Part shown: piece by piece, positions 15,001 to 24,000 of the stretch
How positions within the stretch are numbered: the stretch's first letter is position 1
Layout: each line of letters starts with the position of its first letter
Assembly: GCA_043801585.1 (NCBI GenBank)
Contig: JAZDLX010000030.1
Span: forward strand, 1-32,890
Origin: a bacterium
GTDB lineage: Bacteria > Electryoneota > Electryoneia > Electryoneales > Electryoneaceae
Direction: 5' to 3'
Length of the DNA stretch: 32,890 nucleotides
Made by a program: the position numbers

Positions 15001-18000
15001 TACAACTCAACGATGAATGCGACTCCCGGATCGGCGGCCTTGATCACATCGTGCACACGCATGACAAACTCATCCATGGCGTGCATTCGAAAACGAACCC
15101 ATTCCCGGAAAACGGGATCGTCAAAATTGCCCAAGTCGGCTTTGTACGGATCGAATCCCGTTCGACGGCGAAATTCAGCGACCGTTGCCGAGTCGAAACT
15201 CGCCCAGGTATCTCCCCATCCCTCGAAATGAGTCATCCAATAGGGAACGTCAAGATAGATGCCATCAAGGCCCGTCAGTGCAAGTCGCCGCACGATTTCC
15301 AGGTAAGGGTCCAGCCAGTCCCTGGCGTAGGGAGAGAGCCAGATATCCTCGGTGTTCGGCGGAATCCAGAACGCGGCTTTTTCGTCGAACAGTGCGGGGT
15401 CCCCGTCCCGATTCCTTTGAGCCCAGTTGGGATGGTCCAACAAAGCCGTATGGCCGCTGGCAATGTCATGCGAGAGGATTTCAAGCCCGGCGATGTAGAG
15501 CACCGCCCGGCGTCCGTTTTTGTGCACCTCGTGCGCCATGAAACGCACGAATTCAATGGTGCTGTCCGGATGGCAGAAGACTTCGTAATCCTCGGTCAAC
15601 CCCGTGTGCAGATCGATGACACTTGCCCCGGATGCAGCGGCATTGGCGATTTGCAGCGCAGCGTCCGCTCGCCCCCTGTACCCACAGAGACCGACGATGG
15701 TCGCTCCCTGGATCCAGCCGAAACGCCCGGATTCCTCATGCGGCGCATAGGACCGAATCCTTGAGCCCTGGGTCTTATCTCCGCATCCACAGGAATCGTT
15801 CTGCCCGAACAATGGTGTGGCGACCATGCTGACAAGCAACATCGGCGCAAGGATTCCACTCACTTTCAGAGCAATGCTCCGTTCAATGAATGAGAACAAA
15901 TTTGCCCTCCGTATTGCCCTGCGGACTCTTCAGGAAGTAGAAGTACACCCCCGGTCCCACCAACTGCTGATCGTCGCTCAAGAGATTCCAGGCTTCGATG
16001 GATGCTGCGCGAGAGCTCGTCACCGTATGCTCAATCGTCCGCACTTTTTCACCCGCCACGTTGTAGATCTGAATCGTGCAACGATCCGGCAGCCCGACGA
16101 ATTGAACCTCACGCATCGATCCCTGCTCAAATGCGTTCGCGACCACATAGGGGTTGGGCACCACACGAACGGCGCGCAGGTCATTGCCGCCGGCAAAAGA
16201 TTCATTCGGGACCACACTTACGGTATTGTTCGGTTTGCTCGGGTCAGTAGCAGGCGTACTCTCCAGCGGACCGACAACAGCATTTCCGCTGTCGTACGCC
16301 GCGACGTAATAGAGATACTTGATCCCGTTGATCACGTCGCGATCGGTGAAGATGTTCACCGTGTCGCCAACGTTGAAGAGGGTCAGGGCATCCTCCGTTG
16401 CGACCGGTCTGCGGATCTGATTCCAGGTGTCATCGCCGAGGTCGAACCAGGCGTATTCCGGGAGTGTCCGGTAGTTGCCTTTGATGTTGTCCGGCAGGTC
16501 ATACTGGGCTAGCGGGATGTAATGTGTCGCGCCCTGGAAATCCTGGAAGCTGTAGGTTCCCCAGGTCGTGCCGTTATCGGCGCTGCGATACACCTTGTAC
16601 CCTTCAAACTCGGGGTCCTCTTCGGCATTGGTAGACCAGAAGAGGGTAACTTCACGGTTGTCCTCTTTCGCTTCGACCGTGGGAGTGGGCGGAGCTGTCA
16701 ATGGTTCGAAATCGTTTTCGTAAAGGTTCCTCGCACGTTGGGCGTTGGTGAACAGATCGGCCTGGGTTGTCCCGAAGACCACGGCCACGATCATTGTGTC
16801 GGTTTCGCCCGGATTCAAAGTAAAGGGGTGCGAGCCGATCACCTGAAGGCCATCTGCAGACGAACCGATGAAATAACCCTGCCCGCCGTTGTCAGCGTCC
16901 GGAACTCCGTCACCGTCGAAATCGTCATCGATTCCGTCGTGGTTGCTGTCCTGTGGATCATTGTTGTTGCAAAGGTTCCAGTTGAAATACATCTCCGGAT
17001 TGCCACCAGAACCTGATGGAGACGTTTGCCCCTCCCAGAAATGGGTGGCATCGTAGGTCGCCACGGTGTGATCACCGCCCGGCATCCGCAACGCCGTCAC
17101 CCCACCCCAGGGAATCTGTTCCCGTGTGAGACTCGCGCCGTTGGGGCTTTCGACATAGCCGTTGTCGTCGGTGGCATAGGCGAGTTGCAGATTCTCGTTC
17201 CAGTAGTGACGGTCATCATCCGAGGACCTGGGAGCAAAGGCTTGGGGCAGGAAACCAAGATCGCAATGCACCCCGACCCGCATGTCGGTGAGGGGATCGG
17301 TACCAATATTGCGCACAACCACAACCCACATCAGAAAATCTTCGTAAAGGGAGCCGGTCCACGCCAGGCCGCGCACGACCATCTGGGTTTTCAACCAACG
17401 TGTGGTGCCCTGCCCCCCTCCTTCGAGCTGATCGGTTCCACCCCAACCATAGGAAACGGAAAAGCTTTCAGCGTCGCCGACACGCTCACCTCCGGAACCG
17501 AACCCGGGCCACCCTTCGCTTCCGATCTCAACAGTATCGGTCGTTCCTGGATACACGGTCGGCCAGTTGTCCGGCCAGCTTGAGGGATCGTCGGACATCG
17601 CCGCCGAATCGCTCGAACAGAAACCCGGATAGGGAGCAAAGTGTTCTTCGTTCCAGAAGTCGGCAGACCCCTCATCCATGGTGCCATCAAGGAAGGCGAG
17701 TCCATCCGGATTGGTCCCTCCCCACACTCCGGAGAGCTGGGGGTAAGGTGCTCCGACGACAAAACCGACACTCGTTCCCCAGTTCAATCCTGAACCGTTG
17801 GGGTATTCAAAGGAAGGCATTCTGCGCAACGGTTGATTCTGCTGGTTTCCGTCGCAGAGCAGTCCGGTGTTGTTGAATTTGGTGGCCAGTTTGTTTATCG
17901 AGAATGTCTTCCACCGCTGGTTAACCATCGGATTATTCTGCGCCGAAACAGGGAGCGCGAATGCGAACAGAAGAATAATGACTCCGATCCAGTTTCGCTT

Positions 18001-21000: not shown

Positions 21001-24000
21001 GCCAGCGGCTGGTTCTGCTGGTTGCCGTCGCAAATCAACCCGGTGTTGTTGAAGACCGTCGAGATCTTGTTCAACTCGAAGGTGTTCCATTTCTGGTAAA
21101 CCATCGGGTTTTCCGTCGGGAACTGTGCGGCAGCAGACGATGCCATCACTGCCACCGCCAGAAGAACCAGTGTCCGGCGTCCGAGACGGATGTGACTCAT
21201 CTCAGTCCCCCCACAAACTGAGACCGATCTGGATACGGCGCCCCGGACCCCACATCGTGGGGTCGTTCGTGTAGTCATCACTCGTCGCATCGCTGGCATC
21301 GACTCCCGGTTTGCCCGAATCAGAATACACCCACCAGACGTTGCGGCGATTCAACAGGTTGTTGACCTGCAGGAAAATTCGCTGCTTCATCCCGGCCCAT
21401 TTAAAGTCCTTGTAGACGTAGGTGTCCATGGATATGATCATCGGACCCCGCTCTTCATTCGGTGCAAACGTGTTGAATGTATAAGGGAAACCGCTGGAGG
21501 CTCCGCCGGTCAGAGTGAATCCCCACTCCCTCGGGAATTTGAAAGAGAGGGAACCGCTGAAAACCTGCGGCTGATCCCAATCCGCGAGATAGGTCCGTGA
21601 TACATCCGTCTGCTGGTCGAACAGCAGCGAACTGGACACCAGGGTCTGGCTGTAGGTGTAGTTCAGGAATGCACTGAAGGTGTTGGAGAAGAAGCGTCTC
21701 AGCGTGAATTCGACACCCTTCACTGTTGAGTAGTTGATGTTGTCGAGCGCCGGAAAGCGGTTTCCTTTCACATCCTCAATGATTATCGTACCGATCAGGT
21801 TCGAGGTTTCACGGTAGAATCCCGTGACATCCAGAGTCACCTTTTCGCCAAGCCGCGTCTGGACACCACCCTCGTAGTTGACCGTGTGCTCTTCCTTGAT
21901 ATCTCCCACCGCGATTGCACCGCTCACCGACTGGATGTTCGGAGCCGGATACTTGGGATAGCTGCGGTTCGCTCCCTGGTACACCTTGTAGAAGTTCGGA
22001 TACTGGTAGTAATGGCCGTAACCAAAGTGGAACGCTGCCTTGTCGCTTATCGGATAGGAGACACCGATACGTGGTGAGAAATAGGAAGAGGCTTTGACAC
22101 CTTTTTGCGGAGAATCCTCCGTGTCATGAATGTCGGTTGGGAAGGTACGCATGGGATCGACAACATCGAGACGAAGACCGAGGTTCAGGATCATCCCGAT
22201 GGTGTTGAACTCCATTTTGTCAGTGACGTAGTAGGATGCCTTGATCGGCATATAGTTGTAGTTCTCGATGGGAGAGAATCCATCCGGATTCAGCCGTCGT
22301 AAGACGGCGTGCGCCTGGTCGAACGATCCTCCCAGCGACACCAGGTTCTGGTTGTTCACCTGGGAGGTAACCTGTCCCTCGGCTCCAAAACGCAGGTAAC
22401 GGCTGTCGAAGTAGACCCAGTCCTCTCCTGAGACGGAGAATTCGCCCGATCCGTTCTGCGGGATCACGGCGTAATCGGCTGCCGTGTTCCAGACGCTGCT
22501 GTGGAAGGTGCGATCATAACGGGAAACGACAACGCTGTAATAGGTTCTGTCGGAGAGAGCATGGTTCCATTTCATATAGGCAAGGGTCTGATTCAGATCA
22601 ACCGTGGGAGTCCCGAAGGGGTTGTATTTGAAATAATGGTTGTAGTTACCTGCCTGACTGACTCCCGCAAAACCGCCAACGTCGATACGCAGATTCTCCG
22701 TTGCCTGGTACATGATCTTGCCGGTGTTGAAGAAGATGTCCCGGAATTGCATCGGAACCTCTTTCGCCGTACCCGTCTTGTCCCTGCCTTCAGAATCCAC
22801 CCAGTCCGGGTAGATAAAGCCGAAGATGTATCCATCGGTTGTGTAGTACCGTGAATTCAGGCTGAACCCGATGTTCTTGGCATATGGCACGGGACCGGCG
22901 AGGTGCATTTCCCCCTGCCAGGTGTTTTCCGAGCCCCCATTAAATCCGGTCTTCCCTCCGATCCGGTCCGTATATCCCGAAGCGTACCATTCCAGGTGTT
23001 CCTTGACCTGGCTGATCGGGTTGAACACCATCACACCCGACATCGCCTCTCCGTACTGGGCGCCGAACGTTCCGGAATAGACGGACATATCCTCGAGACC
23101 TTCGCCGTTGATCGCGTCCACCTCGAAGCCACCCCAGAGATCATCGCGAACCGGAACCCCGTCGTAGAGGTACTCGACCTCACCCTCGCGCCCACCACGG
23201 AAGTGAAATCCATCCGTCGGAATGGTCGCGAATTGGCCGAAGACAGGCTGGCTGTTGACAGGTGTCGTCGAAATATTCCTCGTCACACCCGCCTGGAGCG
23301 AGAGGACATCGGAAAGATCGTTGACAGGCAGCTCGCGCATATCCGCCGCCTTGAGGGTCTGCACTTTGAAGGTCTGGTCCCTCTGGATCTGTGGGCGTTC
23401 GTAAATGATCGTCACCTCTTCCATCTGGATCGCACTGGATTGAAGCGTGACGTCGAGGTTTGTCGTCAAACCGCCTTCAATCCCCACACCCTCCAAGGTC
23501 ACCATCGAGTACCCCAGGGAACTGACCTGGATGTCATAGGATCCGACAGAGATGTTCAGGACAAAGAACTGACCATCCAGGTCCGTGGCAGCTCCCATTC
23601 GAGTGCCCTTGATGAGTACGTTGGTCCCTATGATGGGATTGCCCTGGGCATCCCTGACAGTCCCAAACAGCTTGCCTGTAGTCTGTGCGGAGGCTGCGGA
23701 CCCGGCCGCAACCGCAAGCAACACAGCCAACAGACGCATCAGGCTTTGTCGACCTCGTCTCATGCGAACTCCCTCGCTCTAAAATTTCCTGGCTTCTTTC
23801 AAGCCGACATCATCAAAACGTCGAACGGTGACACCCGACGCCTTGCGAACGATGAACGCAATGCCCCCGGCATTTTCGATCGCCCTGGCGACTCGCTCCG
23901 TATTCTCCGGGGCGTAGACGAACATCGCCCCACCGCCGCCGGAGCCGTTGATCTTTCCTCCCAGCGCACCTGCTTTCAATGCAGCATCGATCAAGGAGTC

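Follow-up and report, generated by a model that had tools for sequence, protein, structure and literature searches.

The window, by which we mean the whole 32,890-nucleotide stretch of bacterial DNA analysed here, carries a block of four closely spaced genes: a TonB-dependent receptor, a secreted protein referred to as cargo 1, a barrel of the PorV/PorQ family, and cargo 2, a paralogue sharing 62% identity with cargo 1 across 685 aa. The gaps between them measure 1, 10 and 16 nt in this order, and the ATG at 21200, 1 nt past the receptor stop, is most likely the start of cargo 1. A preliminary description of this DNA had placed the four genes here, and the gene calls bear out both their position and the minus strand (Table 1).

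The block sits within an alpha-galactosamine/GalNAc catabolic locus, in which glycosidases, an inner-membrane transporter and a regulator are clustered as in SusC/SusD loci. For the secreted TIM-barrel protein next to cargo 2 a solved relative was looked for and none was found. The locus also encodes a lipoprotein, which the preliminary description had missed and which turns out to be a fourth conserved member of the cassette. It is displaced by 8 kb in the window; in related loci it sits either immediately ahead of the receptor or in between the barrel and the cargo, and in G043, a genome of the same genus, it is full-length with 484 aa.

Table 1 Features of the window and the basis of their assignment
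Feature	Coordinates	Strand	Basis
Lipoprotein, Ig-like and beta-propeller; contig end cuts gene	31768..32890	-	locus-lipoprotein profile, E 3.4e-50; Big_5 and propeller
GH36-type enzyme, near Flavonifractor alpha-galactosaminidase	29693..31771	-	9awt E 6.5e-66; alpha-galactosidase 8x1b E 4.9e-67
Sodium:solute symporter	28019..29671	-	profile search
Amidohydrolase_2 with leader peptide; candidate deacetylase	26923..28050	-	profile search
ROK repressor, NagC/Mlc-like	25675..26904	-	profile searches
Sugar nucleotidyltransferase, GlmU N-terminal-like	24863..25678	-	profile searches
GHMP kinase, galactokinase-like	23779..24903	-	profile searches
TonB-dependent receptor, 853 aa	21202..23763	-	CarbopepD_reg N-terminal extension, plug and TonB barrel domains
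Cargo 1, 716 aa	19050..21200	-	signal peptide (by eye), beta-supersandwich, linker helix, FN3, PorZ-like T9SS tail
Beta-supersandwich of cargo 1, mature residues about 1-395	19941..21125	-	structure model against solved folds
C-terminal T9SS tail of cargo 1, cassette subtype VxPNPY...F..LP...WDL...GxY...GKF	19053..19382	-	profile and fold matches
PorV/PorQ-family barrel, 337 aa, cassette-specific paralogue	18026..19039	-	NF033709; own clade across phyla
Cargo 2, 708 aa, paralogue of cargo 1	15883..18009	-	blastp
Secreted GHL10/GHL6-like TIM-barrel protein	13836..15899	-	sub-threshold profile match
SIS deaminase, AgaS/GlmD-like	12763..13815	-	profile searches
PfkB kinase	11810..12766	-	profile searches
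Second Amidohydrolase_2	10974..11852	-	profile search
Second sodium:solute symporter	8815..10515	-	profile search
Class II (tagatose/fructose) bisphosphate aldolase	7706..8629	-	profile searches
GH42-like and GH43-like (five-bladed propeller) glycosidase genes, locus end	4271..7667	-	profile search

Conservation of the cassette

Receptor, cargo and barrel form a real, repeated and co-inherited module. Among 62 related loci the receptor is present in 56, the barrel in 56, the lipoprotein in 54 and the GH36-like galactosaminidase in 48, and contig ends cut five of the six loci that lack a receptor and five of the six that lack a barrel. The receptors next to the cargo are orthologues of 43-85% identity (56/62 loci), and the gene order persists across loci whose titles include Calditrichota, Ignavibacteria and Rhodothermales. 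Receptor, cargo or cargos, barrel and lipoprotein are thereby shown to be inherited as one unit together with the galactosaminidase. Among the 29 best new loci of the own phylum, the cargo comes after the receptor every time and ahead of a barrel in 27; several cassette types there show no lipoprotein gene beside the triplet, and other types have lipoproteins of their own. The genome G082 keeps the receptor-cargo junction in all nine of its cassettes, three of which miss the N-domain profile. The cargo family is large, with at least 2,482 protein clusters (50% identity) matching at E<=0.001 and 729 at 1e-10. It occurs in all 74 genomes of the own phylum, while SusD was found in none of the 74. 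The triplet is a fixed and widespread unit that likely serves sugar capture in Bacteroidota-related bacteria, many of them without SusD.

Within the 92%-complete genome itself, a profile search with PF07980 and PF14322 yielded no SusD while its positive control matched, in agreement with the earlier statement. The receptor reaches 68 bits against the SusC/RagA model TIGR04056 (cut-off 368), no SusD-family lipoprotein lies next to it, and the cargo is without a SusD match. That the modules stand in place of SusC/SusD, as had been proposed, is too wide a claim, since all five SusD-bearing genomes of the Rhodothermales order that were tested contain both systems, once even inside the same xylan locus.

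We counted 21 receptor-like frames in the genome, against 22 previously. Contig-end overlaps of 141 nt are a general property of this assembly; the joins C52-C128 and C143-C43, proposed earlier, are one-to-one, and both are confirmed by single intact counterpart genes in G043 (L093 and L095, 80-85% identical) that span them. The fifth cargo, on C74, had been described as cut off by the contig end. Together with a cargo fragment on C32 it corresponds to opposite ends of a single G043 gene (L096), downstream of which comes a second receptor instead of a barrel; the barrel of this cargo lies elsewhere in the genome. Overall, the earlier observation is confirmed and its interpretation partly supported.

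The cargo tail and its barrel

As described before, no Pfam or NCBIfam model scores above cut-off in cargo 1 or cargo 2; NCBI nevertheless names homologues at 53-64% identity 'T9SS type A sorting/C-terminal target domain protein'. A T9SS-type tail is supported. The modelled tail is a seven-stranded beta-sandwich at the C-terminus with an FN3 domain ahead of it, which fits the type A layout, and the window's tails reach 14-19.5 bits against the type A model TIGR04183 (cut-off 23). The tails of the genome fall into two classes, seven tails of the cassette type, every one from a receptor locus, and some 45 type A tails of the ordinary kind. TIGR04183 is matched at E<=0.01 by 58/71 tails of the cassette family and 51/51 ordinary ones, and the PorZ model by 64/71 versus 19/51; the PorU model (65/71 versus 43/51) does not discriminate. 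PorZ is also the best solved match of the cassette tail profile (E 7e-5) and the best fold match (Z 10.5, rmsd 3.2, 96 aligned), with the RemA tail at Z 8.0. The type B model TIGR04131 was found in 2/71 tails (E<=0.01); CHU_C is weakly matched by 47/71 and reaches 20.5 bits, below its cut-off of 27. The cargo is not PorZ itself: neither NF052228 nor the two beta-propellers were found, and the match is limited to the tail.

SprA, PorU-PorV and a PorZ-like gene (on C184) are present in the genome, and the profile search returned nothing over cut-off for GldK. In Flavobacterium the motor is required for T9SS export (PMC10994853). PorZ and PorU retain their tails, on PorQ and PorV respectively (PMC5121618, PMC10202324), and by its likeness to PorZ the cargo tail is predicted to stay uncleaved as well.

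The barrel belongs to the PorV/PorQ family (NF033709 PorV_fam, 175.9 bits, cut-off 90) and scores under the cut-offs of canonical PorV (NF033710, 83.9/250) and PorQ (NF033711, 97.4/220); no match to the PorP/SprF models was reported for it in the profile searches. The PorU-linked copy lies instead on C68 (202.5 bits), and the earlier count of nine family paralogues was reproduced by blastp. In 58/58 cassettes the nearest neighbour of the barrel has the same cargo type, and the window barrel shows 39-47% identity with barrels of the same type from other phyla, against 27-31% with paralogues of its own genome. A PorV-family gene lies within 400 nt downstream of 43 of 46 cassette-type tails against 0.03 expected, as counted in five other genomes picked for their SusD content. 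Cassettes that lack an adjacent barrel exist (L096, L100, L022), and the orphan barrel on C139 groups (SH-aLRT 100) with the barrels of the barrel-less C74/C32 cassette type. Because barrels cluster by type and the barrel-less C74/C32 cassette has the barrel of its type elsewhere in the genome, cognate pairing is firmer than previously held. One barrel per cargo is not borne out, as two old cargo paralogues share a single barrel in 37/62 loci. Such co-inheritance, seen among kin genomes that are not independent, still falls short of proof for physical specificity.

The beta-supersandwich

The cargo model (pLDDT 92) is rich in beta-structure and runs from the supersandwich through one linker helix to FN3 and tail. 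In VIA-align comparisons the supersandwich is closest to 9ju0 (Z 19.4, rmsd 3.3, 258 aligned) and to the N-domain of glucoamylase 1lf6 (Z 18.6, rmsd 2.9, 233 aligned), and the N-domains of GH15/GH65/GH94/GH116 enzymes range over Z 15-19. Other matches include aldose epimerases (Z about 12) and a GH174 chain (Z 14.7), cases in which such a domain can be catalytic on its own, as well as the YidC periplasmic domain (Z 12.7). In GH15, GH65, GH94 and GH116 enzymes the catalytic (alpha/alpha)6 barrel comes after the linker helix. The model has FN3 in its place, and an enzyme of this type was rejected for the cargo. Near-invariant across the family are the polar residues N27, E48, E161, N215, D231, D247 and D262 as well as W125, and many aromatic and acidic residues are kept solely inside the subfamily of the window's cargo, to which D88, E93, E102, H103 and D245 are specific. 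The supersandwich is not confined to cassettes: on C215 and in L107 it is joined to an ordinary tail, with no receptor nearby. The same scaffold adjoins galactan (GH53/GH2), xylan and nuclease genes in other loci, and such a spread is more in keeping with a re-usable binder than with a single enzyme.

Proposed mechanism and alternatives

We propose, with a probability slightly above one half (about 0.55), that the cargo is a T9SS-exported, barrel-retained glycan-binding partner that feeds its receptor. The block would then be dedicated to capturing an alpha-galactosamine/GalNAc glycan at the outer membrane and importing it. The cargo would very probably cross the outer membrane via SprA and be collected and kept, with its tail uncleaved, by its own PorV/PorQ-family barrel, much as PorZ is on PorQ. 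Given such retention, there are reasonable odds that the supersandwich acts as a non-catalytic binding domain near the receptor, gathering oligosaccharides released by the enzymes of the locus and passing them on, the job that SusD and surface glycan-binding proteins do in Bacteroidia. A single barrel type serves the two cargo paralogues, which probably have different ligands or work as a pair. Inside the cell, the family names suggest that deacetylase, kinase, AgaS-type deaminase, PfkB and aldolase could lead into the tagatose route.

Could the cargo be a barrel-anchored surface enzyme after all? A so far undescribed glycosidase, lyase or epimerase with a catalytic supersandwich, cutting the polymer beside the receptor in a manner more like SusG than SusD, would suit a fold common to carbohydrate-active proteins, among them stand-alone epimerases and the GH174 chain, and it would account for the Asp and Glu residues conserved family-wide and the subfamily-specific set listed above. 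We consider it rather unlikely, however: no catalytic barrel follows the supersandwich, the loci already encode several secreted glycosidases, and a single scaffold recurs across galactosamine, galactan, xylan and nuclease loci. The conserved lipoprotein might be the true SusD counterpart on the receptor, with the cargo an accessory surface binder that makes no receptor contact. Its frequency in the related loci, and the separate lipoproteins of other cassette types, speak for this arrangement, which we nevertheless judge improbable, as the gene varies in position, lies far off in the window and is not seen beside the triplet in several cassette types, and as no junction is more constant than that of receptor and cargo.

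Two further readings take the barrel in a different direction. Barrel and cargo may serve the biogenesis or stability of the receptor and bind no nutrient, following the pattern of BamG (a FadL-type barrel) and BamH (PMC12611786); the core conserved whatever the substrate, the weak BamG-model matches of the barrel and the YidC likeness are in line with it. These matches are far below cut-off, though, and a T9SS-type tail, cargo sequences that diverge by substrate type and cargo paralogues duplicated within glycan loci make this very improbable. Finally, the cargo could be a type A substrate like any other, which PorU cleaves and canonical PorV shuttles, leaving the barrel as a redundant shuttle or small-solute channel. 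Most of the cassette tails do match TIGR04183, and in the preliminary description the canonical PorV scored as high in the predicted complex; yet the cassette tails form a class apart from the ordinary ones, which need no private barrel, and barrel lineages follow cargo type, so that we give this option hardly any credence.

Extending the preferred reading, a barrel-retained glycan binder, beyond this locus is tentative. It is possible, if doubtful, that in the non-Bacteroidia FCB branches a T9SS-exported supersandwich on a private PorV/PorQ barrel is the standard lid of TonB receptors, a solution independent of SusD and built by a SprA/PorU/PorV system with no recognisable GldKLM motor (the GldL/GldM searches lacked a positive control). 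In the available part of one study, carbohydrate gene clusters of Ignavibacteriales scarcely contain susCD (PMC10576277), which leaves polymer capture open in these and related lineages of sediment, sludge and hot springs; the cassette is a concrete candidate for Ignavibacteriales and their kin. If true, it would provide a marker pair for calling utilisation loci that are invisible to SusC/SusD-based tools. Barrel-protected, uncleaved T9SS cargo, a hypothesis concerning two housekeeping proteins (PMC10202324), would be extended to a large nutrient-uptake class.

Comparison with known systems

Our literature search found no description of the cassette. As far as the available text of the two papers goes, the order receptor, tail-bearing protein, barrel is printed uninterpreted, as part of a figure legend or a table, for Rhodothermus marinus, in the alginate locus tonB-hypA-hypB (PMC9530828) and in the xylan locus Rmar_1070-1073 (PMC6987092), with the genes listed as hypothetical and given no role. 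G082 has loci of matching layout in which the cassette tail and barrel are present, but the alginate-type cargo has only the tail in common with the cargo family of the window. Rhodothermus is cultured and its alginate and xylan loci are published, which makes the cassette testable there.

Type B CTD proteins with PorP/SprF (PMC9143113, PMC10202324) likewise cluster with a barrel of their own, which is proposed to hold them uncleaved on the surface. The cassette differs in that its tail fails the type B model, its barrel is of the PorV/PorQ family, and it is linked to uptake rather than to gliding or PorE. There are likenesses to PorZ-PorQ and PorU-PorV of the T9SS attachment complex too: the cassette tail is nearest to that of PorZ in sequence and fold, the barrel is of the same family, and uncleaved retention is predicted. 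Those pairs, however, are housekeeping parts of the secretion machine with one each per genome (here on C184 and C68), while the cassette pairs are multiplied and are linked to substrates and to a TonB receptor.

With SusC/SusD and the surface glycan-binding proteins of Bacteroidota the cassette shares a CarbopepD_reg-extended TonB receptor followed at once by a surface partner, a setting of glycosidases, symporters, catabolic enzymes and a regulator, and many paralogous copies in each genome for different substrates. In contrast, its receptor fails the SusC model, and its partner, which is not a lipoprotein and does not match SusD, consists of supersandwich, FN3 and tail, with a third protein predicted as its anchor. 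Both systems can share one locus.

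The window locus

Contig C181 belongs to a 3.28-Mb genome (92% complete) and carries a single minus-strand run of genes from the contig end down to 4271. Within this run a TonB receptor, two cargo proteins with type IX secretion system (T9SS) C-terminal tails and a barrel of the PorV/PorQ family are separated by gaps of 1, 10 and 16 nt. The GH36 gene closely resembles the Flavonifractor alpha-galactosaminidase (E 6.5e-66) and also an alpha-galactosidase. Promoter and terminator scans gave sites no commoner than in shuffles, and no RNA holder is on record for the window. An isolated 92-aa minus-strand frame (3193-3471) consists of an ordinary (type A) tail alone and is probably what remains of a gene; GC content is lower over bases 1-4000 (0.46-0.50 vs about 0.57).

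Genes of the window in the order of the minus-strand run
Feature	Position	Strand	Family models
Upstream block: cut lipoprotein, GH36 enzyme, symporter, amidohydrolase, ROK repressor, nucleotidyltransferase, GHMP kinase		-	
TonB receptor	21202-23763	-	fails SusC model
Cargo 1	19050-21200	-	passes no family model
Barrel	18026-19039	-	passes NF033709; neither PorV nor PorQ equivalog passed
Cargo 2	15883-18009	-	passes no family model
Following genes: GHL10-like protein, SIS deaminase, PfkB kinase, amidohydrolase, symporter, class II aldolase, two glycosidase-like genes		-	

Fold and tail of the cargo

What kind of protein is the cargo? Its structural model (98-row alignment; pLDDT 92, pTM 0.91) begins with a beta-supersandwich (about 1-395); a linker helix and an FN3 domain follow, and then a tail of seven strands. 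In dextran dextrinase, glucoamylase, GH116 and GH94 enzymes a supersandwich N-domain is followed by the catalytic barrel. Fold comparison matches the cargo supersandwich to these N-domains (Z 17-19), and FN3 occupies the place of the enzymes' catalytic barrel. Near-invariant residues form a small set across the wide family, while many aromatic and acidic ones are fixed in the window subfamily alone. Conserved only in that subfamily is also an Asp-rich stretch, DxxDxxxDGxDDDFD, at residues 332-352 of mature cargo 1 (window about 20070-20135), which likely forms a calcium-binding loop. Querying solved structures with the cargo as a single sequence found no match, and the ESM Atlas returned unnamed clusters only.

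The source genome encodes seven cassette-type tails and about 45 ordinary ones. The cassette tail stands as a separate class: the PorZ model is matched by 64/71 cassette and 19/51 ordinary tails, TIGR04183, the model of the ordinary type, by 58/71 and 51/51, and the type B model by 2/71 and 5/51. In profile searches of solved structures cassette tails rank PorZ and PorU first, whereas ordinary tails rank FlgD and the FspA tail; by fold comparison of the cassette tail, PorZ again comes first. Likeness to the PorU model (65 of 71 cassette tails, 43 of 51 ordinary ones) was rejected as a mark of retention, since ordinary tails match too. In the portions available of two papers (PMC5121618, PMC10202324), PorZ and PorU are described as retaining their tails, seated on PorQ and PorV, and a review suggests that a cognate barrel shields the tail from cleavage.

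Inheritance as a block

Is each barrel tied to its cargo? We compared 61 complete cassettes, namely 16 of 62 titled loci (related loci from database records), 40 from the same phylum and five of the source genome itself. Loci that lacked the barrel or the receptor were excluded, as were one duplicate and locus L108, which contains a gap. The latter appears to encode a receptor-cargo fusion of 1,916 aa, which we rejected as the artefact of an N gap. When cassette types were set by the cargo N-domain alone, the closest barrel, the closest tail and the closest receptor end each belonged to the same type in 58/58 cases (types with at least two members), and mean barrel identity was 0.52 within a type across genomes vs 0.32 between types within a genome. 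This shows that receptor, cargo and barrel are inherited as a block; physical specificity is a separate matter.

Cassettes elsewhere in the source genome

A profile built from the seven closest receptors found 21 receptor-like frames in the source genome; their scores are circular, their neighbours are not. Cargo follows the receptor directly in five and precedes it directly in one (C32); at one (C16) the barrel comes next and the cargo, a full family member, lies two genes upstream. One frame is cut, and the other 13 have no cargo either immediately before them or among the next three genes. Neighbouring genes vary with cassette type: GH53 and GH2 genes lie downstream of the C128 cassette, and a nuclease-domain protein gene adjoins that of C16.

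The preliminary description had assembled two of its modules across contig joins. Overlaps of 141 nt are common throughout this assembly, and the joins hold, since a genome of the same genus (G043) has intact genes of 1,209 and 1,159 aa, each between receptor and barrel; the idea that they are artefacts was rejected on these grounds. The cargo fragments on C74 and C32 match the two ends of one 1,017-aa gene in G043, flanked by two receptors and no barrel. Cassettes of this type lack the barrel in the closed genome G037 and have it in G027. An orphan barrel of the source genome (C139:4210-5280) groups with the barrels of this type (SH-aLRT 100; quick tree of 46 barrels), which gives each of the six cassette types a matching barrel, for one type in trans.

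Several loci lie at the margins of the family. In C215:12939-17951 of the source genome, and in L107:6885-8333, a supersandwich is joined to an ordinary type A tail, the L107 protein with neither receptor nor barrel nearby. At C120:13798-23288 a PorV-like barrel directly follows a secreted protein of 2,846 aa whose tail is atypical; the two are possibly a private cargo-barrel pair without receptor. A bacterial microcompartment-type cluster (C52:11263-17121; ORF starts, judged by eye) lies just upstream of the C52 cassette.

Spread and gene order

The cassette is real and widespread. Close cargo homologues (52-85%) are named from Calditrichia, Ignavibacteria, 'Chlorobi' and 'Bacteroidetes', and at least 2,482 protein clusters (50% identity) match the cargo at E<=0.001. 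Scanning species genomes yielded 353 confirmed stretches, the best 80 of which gave the 62 titled loci. Writing T for receptor, C for cargo, V for barrel and L for a beta-propeller lipoprotein, gene orders in these loci from the best 80 stretches are LTCVC (31), TVLC (13), TCVC (3) and variants or cut forms (15). T and V occur in 56 each, L in 54, a GH36-like gene in 48, and GH109 and GatZ/KbaZ clusters in 17 and seven, respectively, the domain counts resting on one scanned representative per cluster. The sole locus of the 62 without T and V where the DNA continues is L022, titled Planctomycetaceae. Its cargo is near-identical to that of L040 (titled Ignavibacteriales), and the lack of the remaining cassette suggests mis-binning or partial transfer.

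In a quick tree (97 rows) the cargos of Ignavibacteriota and Calditrichota split into two clades, one of those preceding the barrel and one of those following it, which makes the duplication an old one with both members retained; in the same tree the window pair clusters with those of L001 and L002, outside these clades. Upstream of the receptor in L001-L062, type A cargos with DUF4832/DUF4874, and others with DUF4957/DUF5123, recur; these are candidates for undescribed enzymes acting on alpha-GalN/GalNAc polymers.

Relation to SusC/SusD

The preliminary description had such modules stand in place of SusC/SusD. Its statement that the source genome has no SusD agrees with our search of this 92% complete assembly, and among the phylum's 74 genomes of >=80% completeness the cargo family occurs in 74/74 and SusD in 0/74. 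In the 29 best new loci of the phylum, mostly of one cassette type and hence a biased sample, T-C is found in 29 and V comes next in 27; of the remaining two, one is cut and one has a different gene in that place. PorV-family matches number 17-33 per genome in five genomes from which titled loci came, and a set of five genomes overlapping with these gave no match to SusD. The available part of PMC10576277 describes susCD as scarce in Ignavibacteriales clusters.

Replacement is not a general rule: SusD occurs in 22/31 genomes sampled from the order to which G005 (titled Rhodothermales) belongs. Five of these were selected for their SusD content, two of them close kin; in this set a barrel lies within 400 nt of 43/46 cassette tails and within 8 kb of the remaining three. 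In G082, nine of ten matches were examined and a receptor is directly upstream in 9/9; the N-domain profile is matched by six cargos and not by three. Those three (L124, L125, L130) have broken receptor frames, which may reflect errors in the sequence, decay or another family of passenger. One G082 cassette belongs to a xylan-type locus, with a true SusC/SusD pair 13 kb away, and another to an alginate locus. Rhodothermus marinus loci of similar layout are printed in PMC6987092 and PMC9530828, whose pertinent parts call the genes hypothetical.

Proposed mechanism and alternatives

Starting from the gene linkage, fold and tail class established here, we propose that the cargo would be exported via SprA, handed to its private barrel and held there with its tail intact, where it would bind alpha-GalN/GalNAc oligomers for the neighbouring receptor; we give this reading as a whole a probability of about 0.55. 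The source genome does have SprA, a PorU-PorV pair and a gene resembling PorZ. GldK gave nothing over cut-off there, GldM matched 0/74 phylum genomes and GldL 0/5, searches with no positive control and hence not proof of absence; a T9SS with a divergent motor, or none, is only a lead. In Flavobacterium, according to part of PMC10994853, T9SS substrate release requires the GldLM motor.

A complex model of receptor barrel (residues 254-853) and supersandwich (3-402) scored 0.01 (mark 0.32) and counts neither way. That the cargo is instead an anchored enzyme would suit its likeness to glycosidase N-domains; with FN3 standing where their catalytic barrel would be, we consider this rather unlikely. 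The lipoprotein could be the real lid, as its frequency among the titled loci might suggest, yet it is the cargo that directly follows the receptor, and this reading seems improbable. To a role as biogenesis helper we give little credence. Least credible is an ordinary cleaved cargo: most cassette tails do match TIGR04183, but they form the PorZ-like class.

Comparison with known systems

In the literature, with subscription journals largely uncovered, we found the gene order in print solely as unexplained annotation and no description of the unit; the parts concerned of PMC11969387 and PMC12611786 hold none either. New here are the galactosamine-linked type, in which each barrel goes with two old cargo paralogues, a test of the PorZ-like tail class against controls, a barrel in trans and coexistence with SusC/SusD. 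An NCBI comment on NF033709 reportedly notes that barrels of this kind occur next to T9SS cargo, so curators may already be aware of the adjacency.

The cassette probably works like SusC/SusD without being a member of that system. It would be anchored like PorZ on PorQ, although its cargo is not PorZ. Type B cargo is likewise anchored, by PorP-like barrels, according to part of PMC9143113; the gene linkage is alike, whereas the tail and the barrel family of the cassette differ.
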